Of a stretch of 64,000 nt of DNA, positions 1,392-26,874 are shown piece by piece. Location of the stretch: the NCBI GenBank assembly GCA_963737065.1, contig CAVTRC010000001.1:1888001-1952000 (forward strand), written 5' to 3'. A model generated the notes under the pieces. That model saw nothing but the letters and a program-made list of their open reading frames with translations. It had not been told where the DNA came from and did no database searches. The first letter of the stretch is position 1. Each line of letters starts with the position of its first letter. Source of the DNA: Candidatus Eremiobacteria bacterium (GTDB taxonomy: Bacteria; Vulcanimicrobiota; Vulcanimicrobiia; Vulcanimicrobiales; Vulcanimicrobiaceae). The position numbers were made by a program, and so were the translations under genes.

Positions 1392-2347
1392 CGCGTCCCC
1401 TTCTCCGCGAACCGTGCAATCGCGCTGATGTTATGCGAGTCGATGAATGCTGGACCGGTAAGTATCGGTTGGCCGCCACCAATCACGTCGCCGTTGGTTA
1501 CCAACAGCCACAGCGCATCGACCGCTTCGTAGCCCTGTAGGTACGGCTGCTGGTCGATGGCCCAACGGACGCTTCCGTGTTGAATCGCCGCGACGAGTTG
1601 TTTGTTCGTGTCGAACGTGACGATTCTCGCGCCGCTGCGTGCAGCCTGTCCTGCGTCAACTGCAGTAAGCGCGATGGGCGCACCGAGCGTCACAATATAG
1701 TCGATACTCGGGTCCTGTTGAAGCTTCGCGGTAATCGTCGAACGGACGGACGGCATGTCCGCGCCGTTGACGTAAATTTTCTCGCTGCGCCCCTTCGTAA
1801 GACCATCTTGCACGCCCTGGCATCGTGCTTCCAGTTGAACCTGTCCCTGCGATTGAATCACGCAAAGCACATGCCTAGCGCCTTCACGGCTCAACCGCGT
1901 GCCGGCTGCGCGCCCGGCGAGCAGTTCGTCTTGTCCGATGTACATCGGGATGCCGAGCCGCTTCCATGCGCCAAAGCCGGCGTTGAACGCGATAACCGCA
2001 ATGCCCGCGGCTTGTGCGCGCCTGACGGCGCTTCCTAGTGCGTCGGGCGTCGCAAGGGTCAGCGCTATGCCGTCCACATGCTGATCGATCGCATTCTGAA
2101 CGAGCACAGCTTGCCCGTTAGCGTTCTGGTCGTTGGAATAGATAAGATCCACGTTGTCATTCGCAGCTGCCGCTTCCGCGCCGCGCCGGATGATGTCCCA
2201 GAACGTGTCTCCCGGAGGTTGGTGCGTAATCATCGCGATTCTCAGGCGAGGCGCGTTGACCGCGCCACCGGGCCGTCCGCGCGCGCCTCCCGTGCTGCTA
2301 CAACCGAATAACAGCAACAAACAAACCACGGCGGCGACATGTTTCAT
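1388..2347 (-). CDS. Sugar ABC transporter substrate-binding lipoprotein (inositol-type)
   Basis: Lipobox-like LLFGC; GDTFWDII and AIDQQPYLQGY motifs of periplasmic sugar-binding proteins; iol context. Confidence 0.88.
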   Translation of the reverse strand: MKHVAAVVCLLLLFGCSSTGGARGRPGGAVNAPRLRIAMITHQPPGDTFWDIIRRGAEAAAANDNVDLIYSNDQNANGQAVLVQNAIDQHVDGIALTLATPDALGSAVRRAQAAGIAVIAFNAGFGAWKRLGIPMYIGQDELLAGRAAGTRLSREGARHVLCVIQSQGQVQLEARCQGVQDGLTKGRSEKIYVNGADMPSVRSTITAKLQQDPSIDYIVTLGAPIALTAVDAGQAARSGARIVTFDTNKQLVAAIQHGSVRWAIDQQPYLQGYEAVDALWLLVTNGDVIGGGQPILTGPAFIDSHNISAIARFAEKGTR

Positions 2348-3420
2348 GTCGCAACGCCCACGTATTTCAGCACGGCGTCTCCAAATTTGCTCGTTGTGAG
2401 CGGTGAGTCGCTTGCGCGCGCAATATCGGACGTTCGCAAACCGTCACACACGACGCGTTCTACTGCGTATTCTATGCGTGATGCGGACGCATCATCGTTC
2501 AGACTGTATCGCAGCAGTAGCGCGGCAGAAAGAATCGCTCCGATTGGATTCGCGATGCCTCGTCCGGCGATGTCCGGAGCCGTGCCGCCGATCGGCTCGT
2601 ACAGTCCGAACGTTCCCCCTTGCGGACCCGCCCGGACGCTCGCGCTCGGCAAGTTGCCGATTGAGCCGCTGAGAATCGCAGCTTCGTCGGATAGAATATC
2701 GCCGAACATGTTTTCTGTAACGATAACGTCGAAATCGCGCGGCCTGCGCACGAGTTGCATCGAAGCGTTATCGACAAGAAGGTGAGTCAATTCGACGCTC
2801 GGATACTCGCGTGCGACTTCGTTGACGACCTCCCGCCAGAGCCGAGACGTCGCCAAGATGTTATATTTGTCGACGGAGGTAACGTGCTTACGCCGTTGCA
2901 TCGCAAGGTCGAAGGCGACCCGTGCAACGCGCTCCACTTCCTCTTCGCTGTATGACATCGTGTCGACCGCGCATCGCTTGCCTGCGGCATCGACTCTGCG
3001 TTCTTTGGGCCTACCGAAATAGATGCCTCCCGTCAGCTCGCGCACGACGATAAGATCCAAACCCTCTACGAGTTCCGTACGAAGGCTTGACGATCGTTCG
3101 AGTCCTGAGTACACGCGCACCGGACGAAGATTCGCGAAGAGTTCGTAATCATAGCGCAATTCGAACAGCGCGGCTTCTGGACGACGCTCGAAGTCAACAC
3201 CATCGAACAGCGGGTCTCCGACAGATCCGAAAAGAATTGCATCGCTACGTCTGCATAGCGCATCGGTGTCGCTCGGAAGTGGCGGAAGCCCCATGCGAAG
3301 CGCGGCCGCACCAACGGGCGCTTCAACACATTCGATGTCCGGGCGCACGCGCTGCAAAACGCGCACAGCCTCCGCCACGATTTCGGGGCCAATTCCATCT
3401 CCGGGCAACACGGCAATCAT
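2344..3420 (-). CDS. LeuB-like beta-decarboxylating dehydrogenase (isopropylmalate/D-malate/tartrate family)
   Basis: PGDGIGPE, VRELTGGIYFG, ENMFGDILSDEA, APDIAG..ANP motifs; no leuA/C/D nearby, so leuB symbol withheld. Confidence 0.85.
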   Translation of the reverse strand: MIAVLPGDGIGPEIVAEAVRVLQRVRPDIECVEAPVGAAALRMGLPPLPSDTDALCRRSDAILFGSVGDPLFDGVDFERRPEAALFELRYDYELFANLRPVRVYSGLERSSSLRTELVEGLDLIVVRELTGGIYFGRPKERRVDAAGKRCAVDTMSYSEEEVERVARVAFDLAMQRRKHVTSVDKYNILATSRLWREVVNEVAREYPSVELTHLLVDNASMQLVRRPRDFDVIVTENMFGDILSDEAAILSGSIGNLPSASVRAGPQGGTFGLYEPIGGTAPDIAGRGIANPIGAILSAALLLRYSLNDDASASRIEYAVERVVCDGLRTSDIARASDSPLTTSKFGDAVLKYVGVAT

Positions 3421-4346
3421 ACGGTAGCGACCATATTCCGCACGCGTTGCGCGATGTGTTCGGCACTGAGGCCGTACTTGCGCAACAATTCATCATTAGG
3501 ACCGCTCTCGCCGTCGACGTCCATCAATCCGATACGCTCGATATGTGCCGGATAACGCTCGGCGAGCACCTCGGCTACGGCACCTCCGAGTCCGCCGTAT
3601 ATCGAGTGCTCCTCGCACGTGAGCAATCGCGGGATTGAGCGCGCGAATCGCACGACGGCTTCGGCATCGAGGGGTTTGATCGTCGGAACGTGCAGCACGG
3701 CAACGTGCACGCCTTCCTGCGAGAGCATTTCCGCCGCTTGAAGCGAGCGCACCGTCTGCCCGCCGGTTGCAATGATCCCCACGTCGCGGCCTTCCCGCAG
3801 CACACGGGTCCGGCCGATCGAGAAACCGTCATGTGGATTTGTCGCCGACGCAACCGGGTCGCGTAACAAGCGCATGTAGACCGGGCCATCATACGCTGTC
3901 GCTGCGACAATAGCTGCGCGCGCCTCGTGCGCGTCACACGGAGCTACGACCAGCATATGCGGTAGACTTCGCATGATTGCTATGTCGTTTACCACTTGAT
4001 GTGTCTTACCAGTGTATCCGGTTAAAATGCCGCTGTAGTGCGCCGCCAGCTTCACATTTAGGCGCGGCTGCGCCACGACGACGCGAACCTGATCCAGATC
4101 TCGTGTCGCCAAGAACGCTGCGAAGGAGCTAACCCACGGAATGAGTCCAGCCGTTGCCATTCCAGCCGCCACGCCAATCAGATTTTGTTCGGCGATCCCA
4201 AGCATGTAGAACGATTCGGGCGCGCGTAAGGCGACTTGGTCGGCCTTGGTGGAGTTCGCGAGATCGCCGTCTAGCACTACGACCCGCCGATCGGTCTTAC
4301 ATAGATCGACCAGTGTATTTCCGAACACGTCGCGCTGCGCGTTCAT
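3417..4346 (-). CDS. Split transketolase, C-terminal subunit
   Basis: GIAEQNLIGVAAG, TIKPLD, EEHSIYGGLG; start placed at ATG 4346 overlapping upstream stop. Confidence 0.92.
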   Translation of the reverse strand: MNAQRDVFGNTLVDLCKTDRRVVVLDGDLANSTKADQVALRAPESFYMLGIAEQNLIGVAAGMATAGLIPWVSSFAAFLATRDLDQVRVVVAQPRLNVKLAAHYSGILTGYTGKTHQVVNDIAIMRSLPHMLVVAPCDAHEARAAIVAATAYDGPVYMRLLRDPVASATNPHDGFSIGRTRVLREGRDVGIIATGGQTVRSLQAAEMLSQEGVHVAVLHVPTIKPLDAEAVVRFARSIPRLLTCEEHSIYGGLGGAVAEVLAERYPAHIERIGLMDVDGESGPNDELLRKYGLSAEHIAQRVRNMVATV

Positions 4347-5176
4347 GTCAGCTCGGCCAACGCGCGCGACACTTCGTCGGCCGACAGCGGCCGCGAGTGC
4401 CACGTGAGGTCATTCTCCATGAAGGAGACGCCTTTGCCCTTGACCGTCGATGCGATGATCATCGAAGGTAAGCCGCGTTGCGATGACGCGCGTTTGCAGG
4501 CATCGACGAACGCGTCAATATCGTGCCCGTCGCATTCAATGACGTTCCAGCCGAACGCTTCCCATTTCGAGCGCGGATTCGGCGCCGGATCGCGTCGCAC
4601 CATCGAAGCATATCCCTCGTCCGTCGCCCAGCCGTACTGCTGCAGGCGATTCCAGTCGAGAATTGCTGTCAAGTTGTCCAGACTGTAGCGAGCTGCTGTA
4701 AACGCCGCTTCCCACACTTGTCCTTCTTGTGTTTCACCGTCTCCGAGCATGACCCACGTTCGATAGCCTTTGCCCAAACGGCGGCCGGCAAGCGCCATTC
4801 CAATGCCGGGCGACAGCCCTTGACCGAGCGATCCCGTCGACATATCGAGCCCCGGAAGCTTGCTCATGTCAGGATGGCCTTGCAGACGTGAGTCGATCGC
4901 ATCGAACGTTTCAAGCTCGACAACCGGAAAGTAACCGCGCAGTGCAAGCGTTGCATACAAGCCAATAGCACAGTGGCCTTTTGAAAGAATGAATCGATCG
5001 CGATCGGGGCCGTAGGGCTGTGCTGGATCGATATTAAGTACGTCGAAGTACAGCGCCGCAAGCATGTCGGCTGCTGAAAGCGCGCCGCCGATATGACCTG
5101 CGCCGGCGAAATGCACGGCCTGCAAGACCTCGCGTCGTATCCGGTTGCCGATATCCTGGAGCGTTTGCGCATTCAT
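4343..5176 (-). CDS. Split transketolase, N-terminal (TPP-binding) subunit
   Basis: GHIGG, DRFILSKGH, STGSLGQG, GDGE..EG..WEA, TVKGKG. Confidence 0.93.
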   Translation of the reverse strand: MNAQTLQDIGNRIRREVLQAVHFAGAGHIGGALSAADMLAALYFDVLNIDPAQPYGPDRDRFILSKGHCAIGLYATLALRGYFPVVELETFDAIDSRLQGHPDMSKLPGLDMSTGSLGQGLSPGIGMALAGRRLGKGYRTWVMLGDGETQEGQVWEAAFTAARYSLDNLTAILDWNRLQQYGWATDEGYASMVRRDPAPNPRSKWEAFGWNVIECDGHDIDAFVDACKRASSQRGLPSMIIASTVKGKGVSFMENDLTWHSRPLSADEVSRALAELT

Positions 5177-6051
5177 AATTGAAACCGCTCGCGCAGGTAC
5201 TCGCGGTTCGCTTTGGCGCAGGCGAACGGTTCGCGCGGTGCATCTTGCTCTACTATGATCCAGCCATCATAATGAGCCTCGCGGAGCGCGTCGACGATGC
5301 TGGGAATCGATACGACGCCCGTTCCCAATTCGACGAACATCCCAATACGGACGGCTTCAACGAAATCAAGACGCTCGCTCCGAACGCGTTCCAGCGTCGC
5401 GCCGTCGATGTCTTTGAGATGCACGTACCCGATTCGCGTTCGATAGTCGCTGAAAAGTTGCTCGGGATCCGAGCCGCCGTACGCGATATGGCCGGTGTCC
5501 GGGCATAGCATGAGGAGTGCAGGATCGGTGAGCTCGCACAATCGGTCGATTTCCTCGCGCGTTTCGACGTACGTGCCGACGTGCGGATGAAAAACGGCAC
5601 TCATCCCACGCTGCTGCAACGCGTCGCCGATGCGGTGTAACCCTTCGGCCATCGTCCGCCAAGCGCGCTCGCCCAGCATATCGTCGCGGCGGGCGCGCCC
5701 GGCGACGCGAATGCGTTCTGGTGATACTTCATCGGAAAGGATCAATACATGCGAGCCGACGCTCTGCAAACGGTCGGCGACGCGTATGCTGCTCGCTAAC
5801 GCGGCTTCATGATTTGCTTCGTCACGCACGTTAACCGCATGAAACGATGCAGCCGGCGCGAGATCGCGGGCGCGCAGCTCGCGTGCAATTGCGTGTGAGT
5901 CGTTTGGGAAATTATAGCTGATTTCCGTGCCTTCGTACCCGGCCTGCGCCATTTCGTCGAGCATCTGCTCGAAGCTCGGCGTACGGACCCACGTGTAGAG
6001 TGGATCAAAGCCCCAGTTCACGGAAGCAGTCCCAATGCGCATCGTGTTCAC
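5173..6051 (-). CDS. iolE: Myo-inosose-2 dehydratase-like TIM barrel (sugar phosphate isomerase/epimerase family)
   Basis: FHPHVGT..ET, PDTGH, VHLKD, ELGTG, WIIVEQD; adjacent to iolB/iolG; start GTG 6051 or ATG 6042. Confidence 0.75.
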   Translation of the reverse strand: MNTMRIGTASVNWGFDPLYTWVRTPSFEQMLDEMAQAGYEGTEISYNFPNDSHAIARELRARDLAPAASFHAVNVRDEANHEAALASSIRVADRLQSVGSHVLILSDEVSPERIRVAGRARRDDMLGERAWRTMAEGLHRIGDALQQRGMSAVFHPHVGTYVETREEIDRLCELTDPALLMLCPDTGHIAYGGSDPEQLFSDYRTRIGYVHLKDIDGATLERVRSERLDFVEAVRIGMFVELGTGVVSIPSIVDALREAHYDGWIIVEQDAPREPFACAKANREYLRERFQL

Positions 6052-6857
6052 CACGCCCACCCTTGTCGAATCCATTCATGCTGCGGATCAAACGTCATGT
6101 GATAGATGTGTTTGGGGCCGGCCAAGACATTCAAATAGTAAATGGCATATTCAGGAGCCGCTGCACAAACGTGATATCCGCGCGGAACGAGGACGATGTC
6201 GCGGTCGCGCGCAGCAATCGTCTCGTCGACGTCGCCTTCCGCCGTGTACACGCGCTGAAACGCAAAACCACACTCAGGTCGCGCTCGATAATAGTACAAT
6301 TCTTCGAGTGCCGATTCGTGCGGCGGATCGTCCTTGTCGTGCTTGTGTGGCGGATAGCTGGACCAATGTCCAGGTGGTGTGAGAACCTCTGTGATAAAGA
6401 GCGTTGATGCCGCCTCTGGGTCCATCAAAATGTCGTAGATGCGGCGCGATGCATTTCCCGTTCCACGATCGTGGGCGTCGGTTTCGTTCAGCGCAATCAG
6501 CCGTGCTGCGTGCGTGCCGCGCGCTTGTGCCGAGCAGATCGCGATCTCGCAGTCGCCACGCGCGCTCAACTTGTACGCCGTTGTTTGCGGAAGATACACG
6601 GCTTGTGGAGGGCCGTCGAACGGAGAGCGCCGTTCGCCGACGCGCTGCCAAGATGCGTGATCGCTCGTCACGTCGGCGGTTCCCTCGATAAACACGAGAA
6701 CCGCTTCATTGCCGCCCGTTTCCGCGGAGTATGAGCTGCCCTTCGCGAGCCGGACGATTTTAAAGTCTATGTACTTCCAGTCGTCGCCGTGTGGTGCGAC
6801 GGAGGCGATGACTCGGTCATCCGTACCGCGGGATCGCACGAGGAGGCTGCTTGTCAC
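6048..6857 (-). CDS. iolB: 5-deoxy-glucuronate isomerase
   Basis: WSSYPPHKHD, LEELYY, VPRGYH, YYLNVLAGP signature. Confidence 0.93.
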   Translation of the reverse strand: MTSSLLVRSRGTDDRVIASVAPHGDDWKYIDFKIVRLAKGSSYSAETGGNEAVLVFIEGTADVTSDHASWQRVGERRSPFDGPPQAVYLPQTTAYKLSARGDCEIAICSAQARGTHAARLIALNETDAHDRGTGNASRRIYDILMDPEAASTLFITEVLTPPGHWSSYPPHKHDKDDPPHESALEELYYYRARPECGFAFQRVYTAEGDVDETIAARDRDIVLVPRGYHVCAAAPEYAIYYLNVLAGPKHIYHMTFDPQHEWIRQGWAW

Positions 6858-6860
6858 CGT

Positions 6861-7877
6861 CTACGCGGCCTCGATGTCGGCCATTTTTACGGCGCAGCCG
6901 CTTTCCCGCGATTGATCCGCGGCGACTGCGATGCGCAGCGCTTCCAAAGCGTCGCGGCCGCCGACACGTGGACGTCCGTCCGCAGCAACGACGTCGATGA
7001 AGTCTTCGATTTCCGCGCGGTATGCATCCGAGAATCGTGTGAGAAACGAGTCGGTTTGGCGCGTTGCAAACGACGCGCCTAAGACGCGGCCGTTCTGCAT
7101 TTGCTCTGCGCCGGTCAGCAGTATCCCACGCGATCCATGGATCTCCGTGCGCACGTCATAGCCGTAGATCGCTTCACGCGATACATCCACAACCGCGATG
7201 GCACCGTTCGAGAAACGCAGCAACGCAACCGCCGTATCGACGTCGCCCGCTTCGCCGATCTCCCGTGCAATGGTCGCGCTTCCGGTCGCCGTTACCTCGA
7301 CGACTTCCGCGGGCTCGAGCAGCCAGCGCGCCGCATCGAAATCGTGAATCATCTGGTCTTTGAATTGACCTCCGCTCGTGGGAATGTACGCGATCGGCGG
7401 AAGGCAGCGATCGCGGCTGACGAGGCGAAGAAAACGGATGTCACCCACGGCGCCCGATCCGATAGCGTTGCGTGCGCTCAAAAAATCTCGATCAAAGCGG
7501 CGTTGAAAACCGATCTGCAGAATTACGCCCGCCTCCTCGCATGCGAGTATTGAGTTCAACGTCGCGCCGATATCGAGCGATATCGGCTTCTCGCAAAAAA
7601 TGTGCTTGCCGGCCGTCGCAGCGCTTGCGATCAGTTCTGCATGCGTCGGACTCGACGTCGCAATGACCACGGCGTCGATGTCGCGATCCCGCAAGAACGC
7701 TTCGATACTGTCCGCTTTGCCTTTGCCCATCGACGAAACGAGGCGCTGCGCAGCATCGCGATCGACATCGGCAACGCCTGCGAGCTCTGCTCGCGGGCTG
7801 AGCGATACCGCACGCGCGTGCGCTGCGCCCATGCGTCCTGCACCGAACACTGCAATGACAGGCCGCCCGCCGCGCAC
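6861..7877 (-). CDS. iolG: Inositol 2-dehydrogenase (Gfo/Idh/MocA)
   Basis: GAGRMG, CEKP, IGFQRRFD, SGGQFKDQMIHDFD, YGYDVRTE. Confidence 0.88.
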   Translation of the reverse strand: MRGGRPVIAVFGAGRMGAAHARAVSLSPRAELAGVADVDRDAAQRLVSSMGKGKADSIEAFLRDRDIDAVVIATSSPTHAELIASAATAGKHIFCEKPISLDIGATLNSILACEEAGVILQIGFQRRFDRDFLSARNAIGSGAVGDIRFLRLVSRDRCLPPIAYIPTSGGQFKDQMIHDFDAARWLLEPAEVVEVTATGSATIAREIGEAGDVDTAVALLRFSNGAIAVVDVSREAIYGYDVRTEIHGSRGILLTGAEQMQNGRVLGASFATRQTDSFLTRFSDAYRAEIEDFIDVVAADGRPRVGGRDALEALRIAVAADQSRESGCAVKMADIEAA

Positions 7878-9685
7878 TACGTCAGCGCCTCTTGCGTGCG
7901 CGCAGCTTCATACTCGGCGCGCTTTTCACCGTGGTAAGCGGGAACCGTGACGTCCCACCATCCGGTCGTCGTGAGTCCGCTCTCGGGCAACTCGCGGCTG
8001 CACAATGCTTCGACGACCGCTGGACGCTCCGACGCGAAGGCACGCCGCAGCGCATCTGCGAGCTGCGCCGGTTCCTCAACGCGCTCTGCATGGCAGCCGA
8101 AACCTTCCGCAATCTGCGCTAGATTAGCGGAGAACGGGCTGCCGTCGCGCTTCTTGAAGTTCGTTGCGATAACGCGATCTGGGCCAAACTGCAACGTCTG
8201 CAAATTCTTGATGCACTCCCAGCCGTAGTTATTCATTACGAGGAAGACGGCCGGTACATCGTATTGCGCAGCCATCGCCAATTCCTGAACCGTCTGCAGA
8301 AAGCTGCCGTCGCCGACGATTGCGAGCACTTGCCGGTTCGGCGCCGCCAGTTTGGCACCGATTGCACCTGGCACCTCAAAGCCCATCGCCGAAAATCCGC
8401 CCGGCGTGATGTGCTGACGGCTTCCGTACACGGGAAACTCGGTGAATACTTGGCTTTGCGGATTGCCTGCGCCGGTAACTACAATCCCGTCGCGTTCGAG
8501 AACCTGCCGCGCGACAACAAGCGCTCGGGAGATCGTCATCGGATTGGCGTTGCTCTCTCGCATCGGTCGCAACGCTTCTTGCCACTCGTTCTTCAGGCTC
8601 TGAATGCGCTCGAAATACGCAGTAGAGCGGTACGCCCGCGGAGCCGACAACTCGTGCAGCGACGACAGCAAATCGTCGAGCGTGGCGCGTGCATCACCGA
8701 CGATGCCGACTTCTACCGGATAGTTCTTGCCGATCTCATACGGGTCGAGATCGATTTGTATGAGTTTTGTCGGTGGAATGTTGAAGGTGATCCCGCGCCT
8801 AAATGAAGATGTGGTGCGGTCCGTGAACCGGCAGCCGACCGCGAGCACGACGTCAGCTTCGCGCGCTAGCGTGTTGCCGGAAATCGAGCCGAGGTCGCCG
8901 CAGGGCCAAGCATACAGATCGTGGTCCTCGGGTATCGCGCCTTTTCCCATCCATGTAACCGTCACGGGGGCGCCTAGAAACTCCGCCAGTAGCCGCAGCG
9001 CCGGCTCGGCGCTCGACGAGATCACGCCGCCGCCCGCCAAAATCATGGGACGCTCTGCGCTCAACAGCAGCTGTGCCGCCTCCTCCACCGCCTTTGGATC
9101 GCCGTGCGAACGGCCGCGCGGGCGGCGTGCGACGGGATCCGGGAGTGCGTCGATCTCTGCGAATTCGGCTTGCACATCCATTGGGATATCGATGTGTGCG
9201 GGCCCACGCCGCCCCTCGAGCATGACGTTGAACGCAAGATGCAATACGTTGGGCAGCTGATCTACTCGACTGGGCTGCCACCACCGTTTGACGATGGGCT
9301 CCATCAGCCGCGGAAAGTTGGCCCAGTGCGTGCGTTCGAGTTCTTGCAGCACGCCGCGTCCGCGCATGTACGTGTGAACCGAACCGGTGAGAAGAAGCAA
9401 CGGCATCGAATCGACGTAGGCGCACGCCACGCCCATTGCGGTATTTACTGCACCCGGCCCGATGGACGTGAAAACGCCGCACGGTTTAGCGGCGACGCGG
9501 TAATACGCGTCCGCCATGTGCGCTGCGCCTTGCTCGTGAATCGCTTGGATTACCGCGATATCATCGCGCCTGTCGACGAATGCATCGAGGAGTGCGGTAA
9601 TGCCGTGACCGGGAACGCCAAACACCATCGGCACGCCTTCTCGGATGAGATATTCTGCGACGATTTGCCCCCCGGTCATTCGCAT
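7877..9685 (-). CDS. TPP-dependent enzyme, divergent IolD-like ring hydrolase
   Basis: ALS-fold motifs (HEQ, GDGS..NN) plus IolD-like GHG, TSIGPG, VLQELE, DVQAE and C-terminal WWDV; iol context. Confidence 0.72.
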   Translation of the reverse strand: MRMTGGQIVAEYLIREGVPMVFGVPGHGITALLDAFVDRRDDIAVIQAIHEQGAAHMADAYYRVAAKPCGVFTSIGPGAVNTAMGVACAYVDSMPLLLLTGSVHTYMRGRGVLQELERTHWANFPRLMEPIVKRWWQPSRVDQLPNVLHLAFNVMLEGRRGPAHIDIPMDVQAEFAEIDALPDPVARRPRGRSHGDPKAVEEAAQLLLSAERPMILAGGGVISSSAEPALRLLAEFLGAPVTVTWMGKGAIPEDHDLYAWPCGDLGSISGNTLAREADVVLAVGCRFTDRTTSSFRRGITFNIPPTKLIQIDLDPYEIGKNYPVEVGIVGDARATLDDLLSSLHELSAPRAYRSTAYFERIQSLKNEWQEALRPMRESNANPMTISRALVVARQVLERDGIVVTGAGNPQSQVFTEFPVYGSRQHITPGGFSAMGFEVPGAIGAKLAAPNRQVLAIVGDGSFLQTVQELAMAAQYDVPAVFLVMNNYGWECIKNLQTLQFGPDRVIATNFKKRDGSPFSANLAQIAEGFGCHAERVEEPAQLADALRRAFASERPAVVEALCSRELPESGLTTTGWWDVTVPAYHGEKRAEYEAARTQEALT

Positions 9686-9700
9686 CTGTCGTCTACCTCT

Positions 9701-10489
9701 CTATGTAAGCGCGCCGGCCGCGGCCTGGACGTATCCGAGTTGCGCGGAGATGGTTTGTGCCGCAGCGCAAATGCAAAGCGCGACGTCGGGGATGCGGTCG
9801 CGCGTGAGGCGTACGGCGGGCGAAGAGATTCCAAACGACGCGATCACAAGGCCGGTGTGGTCCCTCACGGGCGCGGCGATGCAGCGAACACCGGGATGCA
9901 GCTCCTCTTCATCGACGGCGTACCCGACGCGACGCACGCGCGCTAAGTCTTTGTCCAACTCGTCGACGCTCGTCATGGTATGCGGCGTAAACCGCCTCAG
10001 CGGGGACGTCCCAAGGAGTTCGACTAATTGAACGTATGTGAAGTCGGTAAGCAGCGCTTTGCCGATCGCCGTACAGTACAGCGGTTCCGCGGTGCCGATC
10101 GTAGTCTCTACGCGCAAAATGCCCGTAGCAGATTGCGCTGCGACGGAGACTGCAGATTGCCGTTCGCGAACCGCAACATGCGTGTTTTCGCCCGTCTCGA
10201 GAGCAATCTCTCGCAAATGCGACTGCGCTATCTCCACGACGCTGAGCCGGCGCAGCAGGGCTGACGCAATCTCCAGGATGCCGTATCCGACGGAATACTT
10301 TTTCGTCTCGCTATGCTGCATGGCGAACCCGTGAGTTTCTAAGGTCGCAAGCAGCCGGTACGCGGTGCTCGGATCGACGTTCAGCCGTTCCGCAATTTCG
10401 GTGACGCCGGCACCTGCCGGCTGCTCGGCGAGCAAACGCAAGATGTTCAAGCCTCGTGACAACGAGTTGATGAGAGTGGGACCAGCCAT
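9701..10489 (-). CDS. IclR family transcriptional regulator
   Basis: SLSRGL..L HTH, STAYRLLATL, TAIGKALL, GVRCIAAPV; likely start ATG 10489. Confidence 0.93.
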   Translation of the reverse strand: MAGPTLINSLSRGLNILRLLAEQPAGAGVTEIAERLNVDPSTAYRLLATLETHGFAMQHSETKKYSVGYGILEIASALLRRLSVVEIAQSHLREIALETGENTHVAVRERQSAVSVAAQSATGILRVETTIGTAEPLYCTAIGKALLTDFTYVQLVELLGTSPLRRFTPHTMTSVDELDKDLARVRRVGYAVDEEELHPGVRCIAAPVRDHTGLVIASFGISSPAVRLTRDRIPDVALCICAAAQTISAQLGYVQAAAGALT

Positions 10490-10495
10490 TCTTTC

Positions 10496-10593
10496 AATGT
10501 GGCATCTTATTGCACTATCGTCAAGGAGCGCTCTCATACGAAGCTAGGTCTCTCGATAATTATGCAAGGCCATTGACAATTTTGCAATTGCAT
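10496..10593. promoter_or_regulatory. Divergent promoter region with paired candidate operators
   Basis: Minus strand TTGACG-N17-CACATT ends 6 nt before iclR ATG; plus strand TTGACA at 10573; 21-mers 10504-10524(-) and 10573-10593(+) are 15/21 identical. Confidence 0.55.
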
Positions 10594-10639
10594 GGGTGAA
10601 TGATTCCCGTAGCCCGCTTCCAGGGCGGAGGTACGACTG

Positions 10640-13345
10640 ATGGACACTTGCAGCAGAATCTGCTCGCGTACCGCTCTTCTCGCGATCTTTTTCGTTGCGC
10701 CGGCGCTGATTTGCGCGCCGGTCAGCGCGCAGACGGCAAACTCGCCCGTCAGCGCGCAGACGCCAAACTCGCCCAAATATACGATAAGCGGCACGGTCGT
10801 TGACCAGCAGAGCTCCTTGCCGATTTCCGACGCTCGTCTAACGCTCGTCGAAGGAAACGCAACGATCGCTACAACGCGCTCGGATATATCCGGCGCGTTC
10901 AAGTTCCCCGCGGTTTCCCCGGCACTATACAACATTCTCATCACTGCCGCGGGACATGAGAGCGGGCGTTCTGACGATATTGCGCTCGCGGGCGGTCCCG
11001 CGACCGTTTCGCTCGTACTCGCACCAAGTACGACGGCGAATACCGGAAACTCACTCAAAACGATCGCACACGTCACGACTCGTGCGGGCGGCCTACAAAC
11101 CACGACGACGATTCAGCAGCAAATCGACCCGAACATTATCCAAAACCAAGGGAACCTGCGCGTGGCGGAATCCCTCGGCAAATTGCCGGGCGTAAACATG
11201 GTGGGGTCGGACTCGGCAATCGGCGACGACATTTCGGTCGACATTCGCGGATTAAAGCCTAGTGAGACGCAAGTATTGCTTGACGGGCATCCGATCGGAC
11301 CGATCGGTGTGTATCCTGCGCGCATCGGCGGCGGAACCGGCGGCTACGACTATCAGGTTTCACCGACCTTCGCGCTGCAGAACATTCAAGTCGTGTATGG
11401 TTCCGGTGCTACGGGACTGTACGGCGTCGATGCGGTAGGCGGCGCGGTCGATTTCCAGACGCTGAACCCGTCACTTCGCCCATCAGGCACGCTGAAGATC
11501 GGTACAGGGATGCTCGGTAAACAACTTTCGGCCGTGCAGACAGCGGGCACGTCGGGGAAGTTTGCCTGGGTTCTGCTGCACGGCGTCACCGGTGCTTACG
11601 GTAATTTCCCTGGCGCTGTTATTCCGCAAACCGGCCTTCGGGGGACGGACTTTACGTCTGCGACATACAGCGGCGTCACGTACTGGGTTGGCGGCGACTA
11701 CGTTCTGCGCAACGATCTCGGCAAGATACAGTATGCGTTCTCACCTGCCACCACGCTAAGTTTTACCGGATATTCAGCCACGTCGCGCGACGATAAGACG
11801 GGCGAAGGTGACAACGACTTCATCACGCCGGACTATGCGACCTATCAAGCGCAGCAGAACACAAACTGCAGCACGCCTTCCGGTGTAGCGGGTATTAAGG
11901 TTATGGTCGACTCCGGGAGCGCGTGCTACACGCCGCAACAGTATGGGCAAGGCGCGAGCGGACCAGCGGGCGGCGGCCCTGGCGCCTTTCAAGCCCTGGC
12001 GAATCAAGATTACCATGCGCGACTGACTACAAGCGCGGGTCGTAATCAAATCGTGCTGGATTCGTACATTGACAACTACAGCCAGAACCGCGAACGCCCG
12101 GAGTCGTTTGTCAACGGTCCGCTGTCGATATTGAACGTGACGTATCGTTCGATCGGCTCACTGCTTAGCGACGACATCGCCTTTTCAAAGAACGACGTGG
12201 GATTCGGCGCGTTCTCAATGCGTCAGTATACGAACGGCCAAAATATCAGCGGCACAAACGTGATCCCGCATGCTCCGATATTCGATAAACTGGACAGCTT
12301 CTTCGTGCGCGACGTATACGAGCCGGGCGGCCACTTATCGTTTTTCTTGAATTCGTGGCTGAAACACTCGAACGTCGGCGGCAATTCGTTCGATCCTCGT
12401 TTGTCGATCATATACCGGCCGACGTTGTCGGACGTATTTCGACTCACCGGGGGGAAATCGTCCGCGGATCCGGCCCCGCTCGCTCCACAGCTGACCGGTA
12501 TCGGAGGCATCACTCCGGGCAACTGCAAGCTAATTTCTGTAGGCGAAGCGCAGTCTCCGAACGAACTGCCCGAACGCGCAAGCGACCTAGAAGCATCATA
12601 CGCGCACCATTTCACGGCGGATACCAACATACAGTTGGTTGCGTATGATACGAATGAAATAAACACGATTTTCCAAGGACAAGAACCCGCCGCCGACTTC
12701 CTGGACTTCATAAATCAGGCCGGCGCGAACTACCTGCCTAGCGTGTTTGCGAAGATAACACAGCTTTGTCCTAGCTTCCAACCGCCGAATCCCGGCCCGA
12801 CGATCGCGAATCTCGTCGTCAACACCAATTTGAACCTCGCTCGTGAGCGCGCTCGCGGACTGGAGTTGAGCGGCCGCATGCGAATCACCCCGCATCTCGC
12901 AATCGACGGCTACTATGATCTGCAGTCTGCCATGATTTTCGACGCGCCTCAATCCCTCTTGACCAGTAACGTGACGCTGATAAACGGCTCGCAACTTCCG
13001 GAGATTCCGCTTCATAAGTTCGGACTCGCAGTCGACATTACGAACACTCATGGCGCAGAAATCTATATTGACTACACGCATCTCGATAGTAACAACTCGT
13101 TCAATCGCCCCGCCTTCGGATGGGCCGACGCAATGTTGACGCAGAGCGTATCCAAGCAATTGTCCTTGAATCTCGGCATCACTAACGTGTTCAATTCTGC
13201 AGTCGACAACTACGGACGGATCGGCTGGGGAGTATACGTACCGGAAAATGAATACGGAACAGATGCAAACGCTCTCGCGCAAGGGACAGAGCGCTTCGGT
13301 CTTTTGCCGACGGCCGTAACGTTTTCGCTGACTGAAAAATTCTGA
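10640..13345 (+). CDS. TonB-dependent receptor
   Basis: Signal peptide, carboxypeptidase-regulatory-like N-domain, plug motifs (LPGV, IRG, LLDGHP, YG..A.GG.V), NVFN and C-terminal Phe; GGAGG RBS. Confidence 0.85.
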   Translation: MDTCSRICSRTALLAIFFVAPALICAPVSAQTANSPVSAQTPNSPKYTISGTVVDQQSSLPISDARLTLVEGNATIATTRSDISGAFKFPAVSPALYNILITAAGHESGRSDDIALAGGPATVSLVLAPSTTANTGNSLKTIAHVTTRAGGLQTTTTIQQQIDPNIIQNQGNLRVAESLGKLPGVNMVGSDSAIGDDISVDIRGLKPSETQVLLDGHPIGPIGVYPARIGGGTGGYDYQVSPTFALQNIQVVYGSGATGLYGVDAVGGAVDFQTLNPSLRPSGTLKIGTGMLGKQLSAVQTAGTSGKFAWVLLHGVTGAYGNFPGAVIPQTGLRGTDFTSATYSGVTYWVGGDYVLRNDLGKIQYAFSPATTLSFTGYSATSRDDKTGEGDNDFITPDYATYQAQQNTNCSTPSGVAGIKVMVDSGSACYTPQQYGQGASGPAGGGPGAFQALANQDYHARLTTSAGRNQIVLDSYIDNYSQNRERPESFVNGPLSILNVTYRSIGSLLSDDIAFSKNDVGFGAFSMRQYTNGQNISGTNVIPHAPIFDKLDSFFVRDVYEPGGHLSFFLNSWLKHSNVGGNSFDPRLSIIYRPTLSDVFRLTGGKSSADPAPLAPQLTGIGGITPGNCKLISVGEAQSPNELPERASDLEASYAHHFTADTNIQLVAYDTNEINTIFQGQEPAADFLDFINQAGANYLPSVFAKITQLCPSFQPPNPGPTIANLVVNTNLNLARERARGLELSGRMRITPHLAIDGYYDLQSAMIFDAPQSLLTSNVTLINGSQLPEIPLHKFGLAVDITNTHGAEIYIDYTHLDSNNSFNRPAFGWADAMLTQSVSKQLSLNLGITNVFNSAVDNYGRIGWGVYVPENEYGTDANALAQGTERFGLLPTAVTFSLTEKF
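10721..10774 (+). repeat. 27-bp in-frame tandem duplication (VSAQT[A/P]NSP x2)
   Basis: gtcagcgcgcagacggcaaactcgccc / gtcagcgcgcagacgccaaactcgccc, one mismatch. Confidence 0.9.
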
Positions 13346-15040
13346 TGCGATGGGTGTACGTCTCGCTGGCCGCGACGCTCAGCGTCGCGGCCGCCTTCCT
13401 TTTCCCGCCAAGCGCGACACCGTCGCCGAACCCCGCGCAGGTCACGCTCGTTCGCCAACGCATCAAACACGTTTTTATCATCTACCAAGAAAACGAGTCG
13501 TTTGACCATTACTTCGGCAGCTACCCGGGTGCCGACAACCTTGCAACGATATCGGCTGCGTTTCATGGCTTCCGTCAGTACGATCCAATCGCGCGCGCGT
13601 GGACGACGCCGTTTCGGATAACGGATCCGGACGTCGAAAGCCCGGATCATTCGAGACGCGCACTTATCGCTAAAATGCACGGTGGGAAAATGGACCGGTA
13701 CGTCGCGGTTCAGGAACAATCATCGGCGAAAGATGGCTATACGTCGGCAGATCAGGAGCGGCTGGGACAGACTCACGATGTCCTATTACGACTGCGACAC
13801 GATACCGTTTTTATGGAAATACGCTCGCGCATTCACGCTTTGGGATCACTTCTTTCAAGCCATGACCGCGCCGTCCACGCCTGGCAACATCGAAGTAATC
13901 GCTGCGCAGAGCGGACAGACGCAAGCCGCTCGCGATTCACACCTTGTCGTTGCAAAGGACGGCTCGGGTGCCGGCGTGCCAGTCGAAAACAGCATGGATC
14001 CTCCGTTTGGTCCGTATCCGGGACCCGCTCCGGCTAAAACACAGATCGTGCAGCGGTATGCCACGGTGATGCTCACGCTCAACGGCCGCGACAATGTTAA
14101 AGCACGCGTCGACCTGCGCGGCGTTCGCGAAGACGTGCACGAGCTTGCCGAAAGTGGAAGAATGTCCGTTCCGTGGGGATGGTATCAGGAAGGATACAAC
14201 GGTCCCGAACGACGAGCACTAAAAGGATACTCGGCGCACCACAACGCGTTGCAGTACTTTGCGTACTTGCGGCATAATGACGTCTTTTGGAATCACGTGT
14301 ATCCGTTAAAGGATCTATTGCGCGCAGTGCGCGGCGGCACGTTGCCGCATCGCGGCGCTTTTTACATCAAAGGTGGAAACCTTAACCGCTTCGGATGGCG
14401 CCCTGCAAACCGTTCGCCGTTCATCCAGCGCAACTTTCTCGGCGACGATGACCATCCGGGAACAGGCGACTCGGATCGACAAGTTGCCGAGTCGTTCGTG
14501 GCTACGTTTGTTAACGCTGTTGCGCGAAGCCGGTACTGGAATGATTCGGCTATTATTATTACGTGGGACGATTCCGGTGGGTTTTTCGACCACGCTCCGT
14601 CCCCGAGTTTCGAACGTTGCTGGGACGGCTATCCATGTGGCGACGGTCCACGAGTGCCGCTCATCGTGATTTCACCGTTCGCGCGGTCGCATGCGGTTGT
14701 TCACGACAGCGCGGACACTGCATCAGTCGTGCGCTTTCTCGAAACAGTGTTCAGTCTTTCCCCGCTCGCAACGCTCCCGAACGAGCGGCGCTTCATGCCG
14801 GAGGGGCCGCGCGACACAAACGCGCGCTTATCTAACTTATTGTCAGCGTTCGATCGGGAACGCCTTACGGCGAAACGACCGGCTATTCCAGCGGCGGCGG
14901 CGATCGTACCTGATGCGGTTGTCGATCGTTTCCCGGCAGCGATGAATTGCAGCAGCCTCGGCATACGGCCACAGCGCATCCCCGGCAGGAATACGCCACC
15001 GGCTGGTTTCCATGGCCTGCCGAAGCAATTGCTCCCATAA
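13345..15040 (+). CDS. Secreted phosphoesterase, phospholipase C/acid phosphatase family (frameshift near 13765)
   Basis: IKHVFIIYQENESFDHYFG in first ORF; DDDHP, ITWDDSGGFFDH, GPRVPLIVISPF in second ORF. Confidence 0.85.
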
Positions 15041-15054
15041 CGAGGACCTACTTC

Positions 15055-16446
15055 ATGAGCACCATCGCTTCGGCGAACGTGATCACGACCGTAAACCCTG
15101 CAACTGGGTCACCTCTTTCCGAATACGAGGTCAACGGGGCAGCCGAGATCGATAAGCGGCTCGACGCCGCGCATGACGCGTTCATGGAATGGCGAAATAC
15201 TCCAATGGAGACGCGTCAAGCGCTGTTGCAGGCCCTGGCCGCGCATTTCCGCGCAAAGCGTTCGGAATACGGGCGGTTGATCACCCTTGAGATGGGAAAG
15301 GCGATCATCGAATCGGAAGCCGAAATTGAGAAATGCGCCTGGGCCTGCGAATACTATGCGGCGAACGCGCCGACGCAGGTTGCACCCGAAGCTATCTCAA
15401 CGGCGGCCGTTCGCAGTTATTCCGCATACCGCCCGCTGGGCGTAGTCCTTGCGATTATGCCGTGGAATTTTCCGTTCTTCCAAGTCGTTCGGTTTGCCGT
15501 TCCGGCTATCGCAGTGGGAAACGCCGCGGTGTTAAAGCACGCCGCCAATGTAACGGGCTGCGCCTTGGCGCTCCAGCAAGCATTTGAATATGCCGGCTTT
15601 CCTCGTCGGCTTTTCACCACTCTCGTCATTCGGGCGAATCAAGTCGCATCGATCATCGCCGACCAGCGGATTGCAGCCGTAACGTTTACGGGAAGCGACG
15701 GCGCGGGATCCGACGTTGCGGCGGTAGCGGGTAAGCACGTAAAAAAGAGCGTCCTCGAGCTTGGCGGATCCGACGCATTTATCGTTCTCGCGGACGCGGA
15801 TGTGGAGACGGCGGCGAAGACCGCCGTGCGCGCGCGTTTTCAAAATTGCGGGCAAAGCTGTATCGCGGCGAAGCGCTTCATCGTCCATGACTCGGTACAC
15901 GAGTCGTTCTGCGAGCGATTCGTTCACTACGCGCGGGAGATCGTGGTTGGCGATCCACTGGAACGCGCCACAACAATGGGCCCGCTAGCGCGACCTGATT
16001 TGGTCGACGAGTTGCAGCGGCAAGTTTCCGTGTCTCTGTCGCTCGGTGCAACGGCCGTCCTTGGCGGTACGCGTATACCTGGCGCGGGCGCGTTTTACGA
16101 GCCCACCATTCTGAAAGGCGTTCTGCCGGATATGCCCGTTTCCCGGGAAGAGACGTTCGGTCCGGCTGCGGCGGTCCTTAAAGCACGCGATGAAAACGAG
16201 GCGGTTGATCTGGCCAATGCATCGGTATTCGGATTAGGAAATAGCGTTTGGAGTCGCGATCTCGACCGCGCCGAGCGGATCGCCGCGCGCTTGCAATCCG
16301 GCCTGGTCTTCGTCAACAGCATGACCGCGTCCGACCCGCGTTTGCCGTTCGGCGGAGTGAAGCGCAGCGGCTATGGGCGCGAGCTCGCGCAGTTCGGCAT
16401 ACGCGAATTTGCAAATGTACAAACCGTTTCCGTCGCCGGCTCATAA
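15055..16446 (+). CDS. NAD(P)-dependent aldehyde dehydrogenase, succinate-semialdehyde dehydrogenase-like
   Basis: IMPWNFP, FTGS, LELGGSD, GQSCIAAKRF, EETFGP, PFGGVKRSGYGRE; GAGGA RBS before ATG 15055. Confidence 0.92.
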   Translation: MSTIASANVITTVNPATGSPLSEYEVNGAAEIDKRLDAAHDAFMEWRNTPMETRQALLQALAAHFRAKRSEYGRLITLEMGKAIIESEAEIEKCAWACEYYAANAPTQVAPEAISTAAVRSYSAYRPLGVVLAIMPWNFPFFQVVRFAVPAIAVGNAAVLKHAANVTGCALALQQAFEYAGFPRRLFTTLVIRANQVASIIADQRIAAVTFTGSDGAGSDVAAVAGKHVKKSVLELGGSDAFIVLADADVETAAKTAVRARFQNCGQSCIAAKRFIVHDSVHESFCERFVHYAREIVVGDPLERATTMGPLARPDLVDELQRQVSVSLSLGATAVLGGTRIPGAGAFYEPTILKGVLPDMPVSREETFGPAAAVLKARDENEAVDLANASVFGLGNSVWSRDLDRAERIAARLQSGLVFVNSMTASDPRLPFGGVKRSGYGRELAQFGIREFANVQTVSVAGS

Positions 16447-16600: not shown

Positions 16601-18067
16601 ATGAAGACGCTGTTTCTGAGTCCGCCATCGTTCGATGGCTTCGATGGTGGCGCGGGCGCGCGTTATCAAGCGAAGCGCGAAGTGACGTCATTTTGGTATC
16701 CGACGTGGCTCGCGCAGCCGGCAGCGCTCGTGCCCGGGAGCAAACTCGTCGATGCGCCGCCGCACGGGCAGAACGTCGACGACGTGCTCGCGATTGCCAA
16801 GGATTACGAGTTGGTGATCATGCATACGAGCACGCCGTCGATTCGTAATGATGTCGAATGCGCGCGCCGGCTCAAGGAGCAGAACCCTCGCGTCAAGGTC
16901 GGCTTCATCGGCGCGCACGTCGCCGTACTTCCGGAAGAAACACTGCGTGAATACGAAATCATCGACTTCGTGTGCCGTAACGAATTCGACTACACGTGTA
17001 AGGAACTCGCCGAAGGCCGTCCGTGGAACGAGATTCTCGGCCTCTCATATCGTGACGGAAACGGCGAGTTGCAGCGAACGCAGGAGCGTCCGCAGATTGC
17101 CGATTGGGATGCGATGCCGTGCGTCTTGCCCACGTATGCCGAGCACCTCGACGTAACGAAATACTATAACGGATATCTGCTGCATCCGTACGTGTCGTGG
17201 TACACGGGCCGCGGTTGTACCGCAAAGTGCACGTTCTGTCTCTGGCCGCAAACGATCGGCGGTCACAAATTTCGCCACAAGAGTCCCGAGGCGGTCGGTC
17301 GCGATCTCGACGAAGCGAACGCGATCTTCGGCTCGAGAGTGCGCGAGTACATGTTCGACGATGATACGCTGACCAACGAAAAAGGGTACGCCATCGAACT
17401 CAGCAAGCACATGAAGCGGCTGAATCTGAGTTGGGCGTGCAACGCGCGCGCGCACGTGGACTACGATACGCTCAAGATTCTGCGCGACAATAACTTGCGC
17501 GTGCTGCTCGTCGGCTTCGAGTCCGGCAATCAAGAGATTCTCTACCGTATCAAAAAGGGACTGAAGCTCGACATGGCGCGGCAGTTCATGAAGAACTGCC
17601 ACAAGCTCGGGATCAAAGTCCACGGAACGTTCATCATCGGCTTGCCGGTCGATACGCCGGAAACGGTTCGTGAAACGATTGAGTTTGCAAAGGAACTCGA
17701 CCCGCACACCATTCAGGTATCGATCGCCTCGCCGTATCCGGGGACGGAACTCTACAATCAAGCGCTGGCAAATGGCTGGTTCGCGCGCGACCGTTTAGTG
17801 TCGGAAGGCGGCATTCAAACATCCACGCTTTCATACGAGACGTTATCGACGGCCGAAATAGAAGACGCGGTTGAACGGATGTATCGCGAGTTCTATTTCC
17901 GGCCGAAGAAAATCGCGAAGATCGTTGCTGAAATGGTCACTAGCCGTCAGATGCTCGTTCGCCGCCTGCGCGAGGGCGGAGAGTTTTTCAACTACTTGCG
18001 CGAGCGGCGGGTACAAGCGGGTCAACGACGGACGGAGGGAATACAGAATGCCGCTCACGGAGTTTGA
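16601..18067 (+). CDS. hpnJ: Hopanoid biosynthesis-associated radical SAM protein
   Basis: Diagnostic N-terminus PPSFDGFDGGAGARYQA.RE..SFWYPTWLAQPAA; CxxxCxxC (CTAKCTFC) LWPQT. Confidence 0.9.
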   Translation: MKTLFLSPPSFDGFDGGAGARYQAKREVTSFWYPTWLAQPAALVPGSKLVDAPPHGQNVDDVLAIAKDYELVIMHTSTPSIRNDVECARRLKEQNPRVKVGFIGAHVAVLPEETLREYEIIDFVCRNEFDYTCKELAEGRPWNEILGLSYRDGNGELQRTQERPQIADWDAMPCVLPTYAEHLDVTKYYNGYLLHPYVSWYTGRGCTAKCTFCLWPQTIGGHKFRHKSPEAVGRDLDEANAIFGSRVREYMFDDDTLTNEKGYAIELSKHMKRLNLSWACNARAHVDYDTLKILRDNNLRVLLVGFESGNQEILYRIKKGLKLDMARQFMKNCHKLGIKVHGTFIIGLPVDTPETVRETIEFAKELDPHTIQVSIASPYPGTELYNQALANGWFARDRLVSEGGIQTSTLSYETLSTAEIEDAVERMYREFYFRPKKIAKIVAEMVTSRQMLVRRLREGGEFFNYLRERRVQAGQRRTEGIQNAAHGV

Positions 18068-22200: not shown

Positions 22201-22558
22201 TTACGGATTACCTGTTGACTGAGTATCGGAGCTCAGCGGACTGTCCGAATCTTTGTCGCCGCCAGCGTGCATCACTCGGATGTCGCCTCCATACCGTTCA
22301 AGAATCGCCAAAATCTCCGTTCCGTGTGCGGGATCCTGAACGGTTAAGACCGAGCCCTCGTTGTACGGACCCGAGTCCGAACCGATAAGCTTGTTGAGTG
22401 CGTCCATCGTGTCTTCTTTACCGGTCTCTAAAGTTTGAAGGACGATGGCGGAGTTCGGCACTCCAGCGTTCAGCAATTCCTGCTGCGCGTTCTTTTGCGT
22501 TGTCGTCGTTCTTAAAATACGCGGTGAGCCGACCCGAAATGTAACTCGTAGAATCCAT
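22201..22558 (-). CDS. Small hypothetical protein (frameshift near 22495)
   Basis: GGAGG RBS, MDSTSYISGRLTAYF.. joins KNAQQELLNAGV..LERYGG across an A-run. Confidence 0.55.
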
Positions 22559-22662
22559 TGCGTGGCCTCCAAATCGTGTGATGTGCTCGTTTCCGAACCG
22601 AACTAACCTAAAACGTGATTGGTCCCCTCGGGCGCAACCGATAGCACGGTTGGAATTGACGG

Positions 22663-24425: not shown

Positions 24426-24480
24426 TTATAGCGCGGATGCCGCCGGTGAAATAACGAGCAATCGCCCGGCTTGAAATCCT

Positions 24481-26725: not shown

Positions 26726-26874
26726 GGTATTCGCACCTCCGGGTTACAGCGGCGTTCGCCGCCACGGTCGACGCTTGAACGCATACCTTCCTGATGGTTC
26801 ACGTCCCCAAGCGTCATCACTCGTGAGTAGAACGAAACGAACCGCAGATAAATTCGCAGCAAGCGTGGCCCCGG

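Follow-up and report, generated by a model that had tools for sequence, protein, structure and literature searches.

In a 64,000-nucleotide window of the Candidatus Eremiobacteria genome G000 (contig C1, positions 1888001–1952000; the window is the whole stretch analysed), we found an operon that joins genes of inositol breakdown to a two-gene transketolase (TK) and an extra copy of leuB, the isopropylmalate dehydrogenase gene. G000 comprises two contigs and is 95.3% complete. The operon is real and conserved, and sequence comparison gives good support to its reading as a new lower branch of inositol catabolism. The enzymes IolG, IolE-like, IolD-like and IolB would yield 2-deoxy-5-keto-D-gluconate (DKG), as their family membership and position suggest. 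The split TK would take unphosphorylated DKG and move C5–C6 to a sugar-phosphate acceptor, for example glyceraldehyde 3-phosphate to give xylulose 5-phosphate, freeing (R)-3-hydroxy-4-oxobutanoate (malic semialdehyde). An enzyme of the succinate semialdehyde dehydrogenase (SSADH) type, linked or housekeeping, would oxidise the semialdehyde to D-malate, and the recruited LeuB copy would convert D-malate by oxidative decarboxylation to pyruvate, CO2 and NADH. We consider this route as a whole, under IclR control and starting from inositol or a related cyclitol, to be probable, and the TK step by itself, with DKG as ketol donor, to be highly likely. Gene content, coupling, conservation, exclusion of IolC, pocket changes and partner swaps are observations; every substrate and product is one that we infer.

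Canonical myo-inositol catabolism (IolG, IolE, IolD, IolB, IolC, IolJ or IolC-DUF2090, and IolA) has its upper genes and an ABC transporter in common with the operon. It differs in that the operon's genome is without IolC, IolJ and DUF2090, and has its IolA unlinked. The canonical pathway makes a 3+3 split after phosphorylation, whereas the split proposed here would be 2+4 and free of phosphorylation.

Gene calls were made from an open reading frame (ORF) listing and from profile-family and Pfam scans of the window proteins. All operon genes lie on the minus strand. A regulator with Pfam IclR domains leads (9701–10537), as it does in 12/12 related 20-kb loci, followed by a divergent IolD-like, thiamine diphosphate (ThDP)-dependent ring-opening hydrolase (7877–9685; TIGR04377 332 bits, cut-off 715), IolG inositol 2-dehydrogenase (6861–7877; TIGR04380 352, cut-off 355), IolB 5-deoxy-glucuronate isomerase (6048–6857; TIGR04378 301, above the cut-off of 205) and an IolE-like inosose dehydratase (5173–6075, with an alternative ATG at 6042; TIGR04379 214, cut-off 290). 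Next come the N subunit of the split TK, tktN (4343–5176, from the family scan and alignment), its C subunit, tktC (3417–4346, from alignment to human TK and 6YAK), and the extra LeuB copy, a proposed decarboxylating D-malate dehydrogenase (2344–3420; TIGR00169 440, above 353). A sugar ABC transporter closes the operon: a substrate-binding protein (1388–2347; best model a rhizopine-binding protein, below cut-off), a permease (348–1391, family and Pfam scans) and an ATPase (1–351, ABC_tran at the orthologous position in L011) that runs past the window's left edge. IolB and LeuB alone reach curated cut-offs; IolG is 3 bits short, and the IolE-like, IolD-like and SSADH models fall below. The junction gaps are, in order, 15, −1, 3 and −28, then −4 six times. 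The original prediction of a single coupled operon spanning the iolD-like gene to the transporter is thus confirmed, and the 4-bp overlaps that it ascribed to most junctions occur at six of the ten. A scan for sigma-70 promoters and terminators performed no better than chance level.

The steps that would normally follow DKG are largely missing from the genome. Whole-genome searches of G000 gave at most 39 bits for IolC, none above cut-off, and no class II aldolase or DUF2090; the sole PfkB protein is the heptose kinase HldE. No kinase-like gene was recognised beyond coordinate 1 in the ORF list of the flank's last 12 kb. Of the canonical set, the window holds a qualifying IolB and no IolC, IolJ/DUF2090 or linked IolA. 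The absence of iolC and iolJ, which the original prediction had read from the window and proposed to check elsewhere, extends to the entire genome, so that neither shares the regulon. For iolA the outcome differed: an IolA/MMSDH-type enzyme scored above cut-off at C1:607175, some 1.3 Mb off and unlinked to the operon, adjoining an aminotransferase and an amino-acid permease. These genome-wide checks did not overturn the original interpretation, which we find supported in part.

An unrecognised kinase and aldolase, or a transaldolase elsewhere, might instead process DKG together with the IolA found far away, while the TK of the operon served only to balance pentose phosphates. G000 does encode, besides the MMSDH, a class I aldolase, DeoC and a transaldolase adjoining a housekeeping TK, and the genome is not quite complete; a Chloroflexota locus, L347, has iolB, a transaldolase-like gene and iolA near its TK. 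We nevertheless judge this very improbable, since the only PfkB is HldE, two ordinary TKs (the housekeeping enzyme and an ordinary split TK) are already present, the MMSDH sits in an aminotransferase context with none of the top three operator matches outside the window near it, and the TK of the operon is missing conserved residues of the sugar-phosphate pocket and follows the absence of IolC in its distribution.

Within the phylum, the operon and IolC exclude each other. Among 251 genomes surveyed, 27 carry iolB: G000, 13 others of families f1 and f3 (its class), and 13 of families f18–f21. IolC scored above cut-off in all 13 of the f18–f21 genomes, lying beside iolB in 12 as judged from coordinates, and in 0 of the 13 other f1/f3 genomes. 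The gene order iclR–iolD-like–iolG–iolB–iolE–tktN–tktC–leuB recurred in 12/12 fetched f1/f3 loci and, spread over two contig ends, in G185, while neither TK nor leuB was present in any of the 8 fetched IolC-positive loci (of 13). A TktC profile, itself built with 3 of the 14 iol genomes of the class, gave 485–528 bits in all 14 and no more than 333 in 15 iolB-negative and 6 IolC-positive genomes. The two closest TK relatives (73–75% identical) are from Candidatus Eremiobacteraeota. Because the 14 class genomes are kin, they represent about one evolutionary event.

The operon TK has a remodelled active site. TktN keeps the catalytic histidines His28, His68, His101 and His260 and the ThDP motif (Gly147, Asn176), and TktC keeps Glu53, Arg5, Ser32 and Arg162. 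Aligned to human TK, Arg318, Ser345 and Arg474 are retained, and His416, Asp424 and Pro426 are replaced in TktC by Tyr104, Thr112 and Lys114, respectively. In TktN, Asp92 stands nine residues ahead of a catalytic His in place of the usual Arg. We take the retained human sites to be R358, S385 and R520 of the E. coli enzyme, the altered ones to be H461, D469 and P471, and TktN position 92 to be R91. The full His/Asp/Arg pocket of pentose-phosphate TKs is therefore absent (Tyr104, Thr112, Asp92). In a census of 194 loci, 100 had Tyr104, 88 had His104 and 6 were unclassed. None of the Tyr104 loci had Asp112; 84 had Lys or Arg at position 114, and 83 of the 89 scored had Asp92. By comparison, Asp112 was present in 88/88 His104 loci and Arg92 in 83/83 scored. 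The operon TK, by its sequence, is a member of a separate Tyr-class clade. A homologue search with TktC returned generic names only. One alignment row (L013) came from an unpublished genome, G559, and another genome, G483, entered only a tally; the conclusions depend on neither.

In E. coli TK, D469 bridges R91, and the D469T change lets in carboxylated aldehydes (PMC5073344), while the engineered R358I/H461S/R520Q enzyme is improved in 5-ketogluconate cleavage (PMC12016104). Because the natural changes coincide with engineered E. coli sites, the pocket is rebuilt at exactly the positions that would have to change for an acid substrate. Lys114 might contact the carboxylate, or it might do no more than form a pair with Asp92. 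An AlphaFold model of TktC (mean pLDDT 85.6) was set aside for this residue, the motif loop 110–115 falling below 50. The original prediction had noted that DKG shares the D-threo ketol configuration of D-xylulose. Bookkeeping on Fischer projections agrees; the further argument that DKG should for this reason fit a TK is weakened, since the enzyme has lost the Asp that presumably reads the donor's C4-OH.

The loss of one phosphate-binding His raises the alternative that TK cleaves DKG with no acceptor, freeing glycolaldehyde or an oxidised two-carbon product, and one-substrate TK reactions are cited by PMC12016104. We regard this as extremely improbable: Arg5, Ser32 and Arg162 are each conserved in 98/100 Tyr-class rows, and a pyrophosphate-dependent phosphofructokinase, which would fit acceptor recycling, clusters with TK in 3/3 Bacilli acid-sugar loci.

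Outside its class, the same TK clade again accompanies iol genes. We scanned the neighbourhoods of 181 loci, many of them short, by BLAST thresholds against our own reference proteins. Among genomes, iol genes flank 5/14 Tyr-class versus 0/61 His-class loci; among metagenomes, 14/53 versus 1/26. They also flank 4/20 Chloroflexota loci, one of these by a weak IolE-like match alone. None of the 181 TK loci holds an IolC-like gene, and the iol-linked rows are spread over at least four subclades of the TktC tree. In the Chloroflexota loci L018, L021 and L036 this type of TK lies beside a canonical iolD above cut-off, and IolC reached cut-off in 0/9 Chloroflexota genomes tested. A plasmid of Curtobacterium sp. 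MCJR17_020 (L228) brings together iolG, an iolE-like gene, iolB, iolD, an SSADH gene, two iclR genes, the TK pair and phosphoenolpyruvate carboxykinase; it also has a 1-PFK-like kinase, for which no IolC match was listed at E 1e-30. In the class of Paenibacillus, a TK match was found in 33/401 genomes, and the seven loci opened comprised two iol + TK operons, three acid-sugar clusters, one other Tyr-class locus and one His-class locus.

These lineages also indicate which partners the TK may work with. In L274 the order is iolD–iolE–tartrate dehydrogenase (above cut-off)–tktN–tktC–iolG. In both Bacilli iol + TK clusters, which have canonical iolD and iolE, a tartrate dehydrogenase lies upstream at a distance of about 2 kb; it is above cut-off in G712 and 52% identical to the L274 enzyme in G783, and neither genome has IolC above cut-off. 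Overall, the 181 loci include 7 of the Tyr class and 0 of the His class that are flanked by genes of the tartrate dehydrogenase type, and SSADHs lie within the iol + TK clusters L228, L245, L248 and L278. This convergence, with tartrate dehydrogenases in the slot that leuB occupies here, is the best support for the proposed D-malate step.

The operon LeuB belongs to the isopropylmalate dehydrogenase family; beyond its match to that model, it fails the tartrate dehydrogenase model (TIGR02089, 222 bits against 470). A second leuB lies at C1:1952197–1953291, 66% identical to the operon copy, and the possibility that the operon gene is the sole leuB is ruled out by second copies here and in relatives. 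A second close match is present in each of the 9 other f1 iol genomes, although it is only partial in G147 and G208 and is split in G202; the iolB-negative genomes carry a single close copy (15/15). In f3 genomes the other copy is a different type of isopropylmalate dehydrogenase, behind leuC–leuD in G154. The ten f1 operon copies form one clade (support 100/98) and the four f3 copies a second, a single origin being unsupported; leuB directly follows tktC in 14/14 class genomes. The operon enzyme shares the beta-decarboxylating family and the (2R)-malate core with DmlA/TtuC and LeuB; it differs from DmlA/TtuC in being of the LeuB family with Glu where they have Trp, TtuC-family enzymes filling the slot in other lineages only. 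The original suggestion of a LeuB-like enzyme agrees with this, the enzyme being outside the DmlA/TtuC family from which that suggestion drew its example. D-(R)-malate would be the expected intermediate because DKG, read from C6, has the xylulose pattern, so that cleavage leaves the D-aldehyde. LeuB is reportedly active on D-malate. An isopropylmalate dehydrogenase is known to accept alkylmalates (PMC2796266). G000 has leuC/leuD-type and leuA-like genes and two leuB genes (contig C1: 168229–170022, 673713–674594 and 1952197–1953291).

The SSADH-like gene (15058–16446, plus strand), the proposed malic semialdehyde dehydrogenase, fails the SSADH equivalog cut-off (PRK09406, 540 against 730) and is called SSADH-like for that reason. 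TK and semialdehyde dehydrogenase (SSDH) turn 5-ketogluconate, a close analogue of DKG, into tartrate in vitro (PMC13527115). Every f1 genome has some SSADH-like protein, and tree support for a dedicated clade is weak (0.70). The original prediction had the gene in the divergent operon; it is on the divergent strand, and the genes for a TonB-dependent receptor and for a phosphoesterase with a frameshift separate it from the iol operon. The predicted co-occurrence of TK, LeuB and SSADH-like genes with iol genes held for the first two in 14/14 class genomes.

Several findings tell against the proposed route. The SSADH-like gene is linked in just 7/14 class genomes (G000, G195, G198, G222, G103, G036 and, frameshifted, G202); two more (G210, G186) have it on a different contig, next to the phosphoesterase, and in the remaining five no close orthologue was found. 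The operon LeuB keeps 15/17 site residues of PMC2796266, positions being mapped by hand, among them Glu82 where tartrate/malate enzymes have Trp, and its two pocket changes, Phe86 and Ile188, are also those of the housekeeping copy, so that any specialisation of LeuB would be invisible in its sequence. No decarboxylating dehydrogenase is seen near the majority of the iol + TK loci that lie outside the class, and four Chloroflexota genomes with iol and TK (G254, G255, G335, G543) have no tartrate dehydrogenase above cut-off. IolA lies near iol + TK in the Chloroflexota loci L021, L031 and L347. Most TKs of the Tyr class have no iol genes next to them.

With a LeuB pocket indistinguishable from that of the housekeeping copy, incomplete SSADH linkage and many iol + TK loci lacking both partners, the four-carbon aldehyde might be reduced, exported or otherwise oxidised after TK cleavage of DKG, LeuB being a passenger or serving leucine synthesis. 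We find this distinctly unlikely, given the position of leuB directly after tktC in every class genome in addition to a separate copy (the one in G154 behind leuC–leuD), and the tartrate/D-malate dehydrogenases that occupy the slot in other lineages.

At the entry to the pathway, the IolD-like protein is 78–91% identical across the class and only about 30% identical to canonical IolD, with which it shares a G-H-G motif and a C-terminal WWDV motif. That both this protein and the IolE-like protein score below their equivalog cut-offs counts against the proposed reading, as do the plasmid relatives of the former: 93 records, of which the four opened are all in clusters without iolB. The entry cyclitol may thus differ from myo-inositol, because the IolD-like protein is divergent and its plasmid relatives stand outside iolB clusters. 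These four (L359–L362; 47–60% identical; rhizobia, Priestia and haloarchaea) lie beside HisD-like and GMC oxidoreductases, ThuA or IolM, and would constitute a ThDP hydrolase subfamily that has no assigned function. Identity as an acetolactate synthase was considered for the IolD-like protein and rejected: at 393 bits it exceeds the IolD score and is far under the cut-offs for such enzymes, it carries the IolD motifs, and G000 has no ilvC. Nor was an acetolactate synthase found in that genome.

The same logic of TK, aldehyde dehydrogenase and LeuB could then serve another cyclitol (an inositol isomer, a methyl ether, an amino- or a C7-cyclitol) by way of a DKG analogue and a substituted malate. 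Besides the divergent IolD-like protein and the company kept by its relatives, the low IolE score, the rhizopine model nearest to the binding protein and the alkylmalates taken by isopropylmalate dehydrogenase (PMC2796266) would agree with this. We think it unlikely, however, as the score of IolB exceeds its cut-off and that of IolG comes close, the conserved core contains no recognised tailoring enzyme (demethylase, transaminase), and the same TK clade accompanies canonical IolD, IolE and IolB elsewhere.

Both divergent operons appear to form one IclR regulon. An operator-like inverted pair, TTGACnnTnnTGCAAT, found by repeat search, lies between them at 10509–10524 and 10573–10588. Sites of this type, with at most two mismatches to a consensus written by eye from the repeat search, occur in 13/13 intergenic regions between the divergent operons, and a matrix trained on relatives alone ranks the two sites of the window first and second in the genome. 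None of the three best matches outside the window stands ahead of a recognisable iol gene, ORFs being assigned by eye. The divergent operon opens with the TonB-dependent receptor (10640–13345, plus strand, by family scans), present in 11/12 related 20-kb loci, followed by the PF04185 phosphoesterase (13345–15040, plus strand, by Pfam scan), which may free the cyclitol from phosphorylated sources. Its frameshift near 13770 is absent from relatives, where a single frame is found, and may be an assembly error.

The original prediction that the route carries no ATP cost holds for the cleavage, which would proceed free of a kinase. For the route as a whole it is overstated, in that the two-carbon unit still requires a sugar-phosphate acceptor. 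By our arithmetic, about 2 ATP would be spent per 3 inositol if the acceptor were regenerated by transaldolase together with an ATP-dependent phosphofructokinase, unless the oxidative pentose pathway or biomass took up the sugar phosphates bearing the two-carbon unit. Phosphoketolase was considered as an outlet for this unit and rejected, being found in 5/14 class genomes and not in G000.

Split TKs for special sugars have precedent in apiose catabolism, where AptAB acts on a phosphorylated branched ketose. In the sulfo-TK pathway, the two-gene SqwGH cleaves an anionic unphosphorylated ketose and transfers the ketol unit to glyceraldehyde 3-phosphate (PMC9594981). The operon TK is likewise encoded by two genes with an anionic unphosphorylated donor proposed; it would differ in a donor that is a carboxylate, not a sulfonate, in a single cleavage, and in a four-carbon piece that is oxidised and decarboxylated. 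Neither sulfoquinovosidase, sulfoquinovose isomerase nor SqwI is among the annotated operon genes. The parallel drawn in the original prediction with the route from 5-ketogluconate to tartrate is borne out: TK and SSDH carry out the same two steps in vitro on the 2-hydroxy analogue, 5-keto-D-gluconate, to give L-tartrate (PMC13527115). The TKs used there, ordinary or engineered, are poor on this non-native substrate (Km 141 mM; PMC13527115), whereas a dedicated natural TK clade and D-malate as product are proposed here. The route proposed for the operon works like the sulfo-TK and 5-ketogluconate-to-tartrate routes and belongs to neither, and it departs from the canonical pathway at IolC, IolJ and IolA.

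The original note knew of no such route for inositol, and we likewise found no description of a TK step in inositol catabolism in the literature searched, which did not cover subscription journals or supplements. In PMC9007349, IolJ and DUF2090 are described as aldolases and no other type of cleavage enzyme appears; PMC9430895 treats iolC as a core gene, and the word transketolase does not occur in its main text. Surveys of this kind regard iolC as core and attribute missing core genes to assembly gaps (PMC9430895), so that they would score a branch free of the kinase wrongly. Soils are rich in inositol and phytate as carbon sources. If true, the proposal would bring to a textbook pathway a type of cleavage new to it, provide a metabolic source for D-malate and be a case of an enzyme of leucine synthesis put to catabolic use. 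A natural TK acting on keto-sugar acids would also bear on the limiting step of microbial tartrate production, at which the Km of ordinary enzymes exceeds 100 mM (PMC13527115).

The TK clade is also found in clusters that have no iol genes. Loci L255, L270, L399, L400 and L402 (also L014, L339 and L341) combine it with tartrate dehydrogenase and aldehyde dehydrogenase genes, and the same clusters hold idonate-type Zn-dehydrogenases and TRAP transporters. They are candidates for a natural pathway from keto-sugar acids to tartrate. More broadly, the split TKs with Tyr, Thr and Lys might be a widespread, unrecognised family of 5-keto-aldonate TKs. With a semialdehyde dehydrogenase and a decarboxylating dehydrogenase of the tartrate/D-malate type, they would form a portable module. 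In at least four phyla this module would finish the breakdown of inositol by way of D-malate and with no kinase; where it clusters with TRAP transporters and idonate-type dehydrogenases, it would be the natural route in bacteria from 5-keto-sugar acids to tartrate. We regard the case for this wider proposal as evenly balanced.

In L347 (770–4657), a distance of about 4 kb separates the iol + TK operon from iolB, a transaldolase-like ORF assigned by eye and iolA; with the transaldolase-like ORF between iolB and iolA, two kinase-free routes may coexist there. In the window itself, the aldehyde dehydrogenase is followed by the hopanoid radical SAM gene hpnJ (16601–18067, above cut-off), which appears unrelated to the regulon. 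Tandem Pro/His-rich peptide repeats (PPKPVVHEAA) at 24426–24951 are read in a frame that overlaps the 24948–26765 ORF at its end, possibly as a frameshifted tail. At 22418–24425, a gamma-glutamyltransferase-like gene is seemingly split across two frames, as judged by eye.

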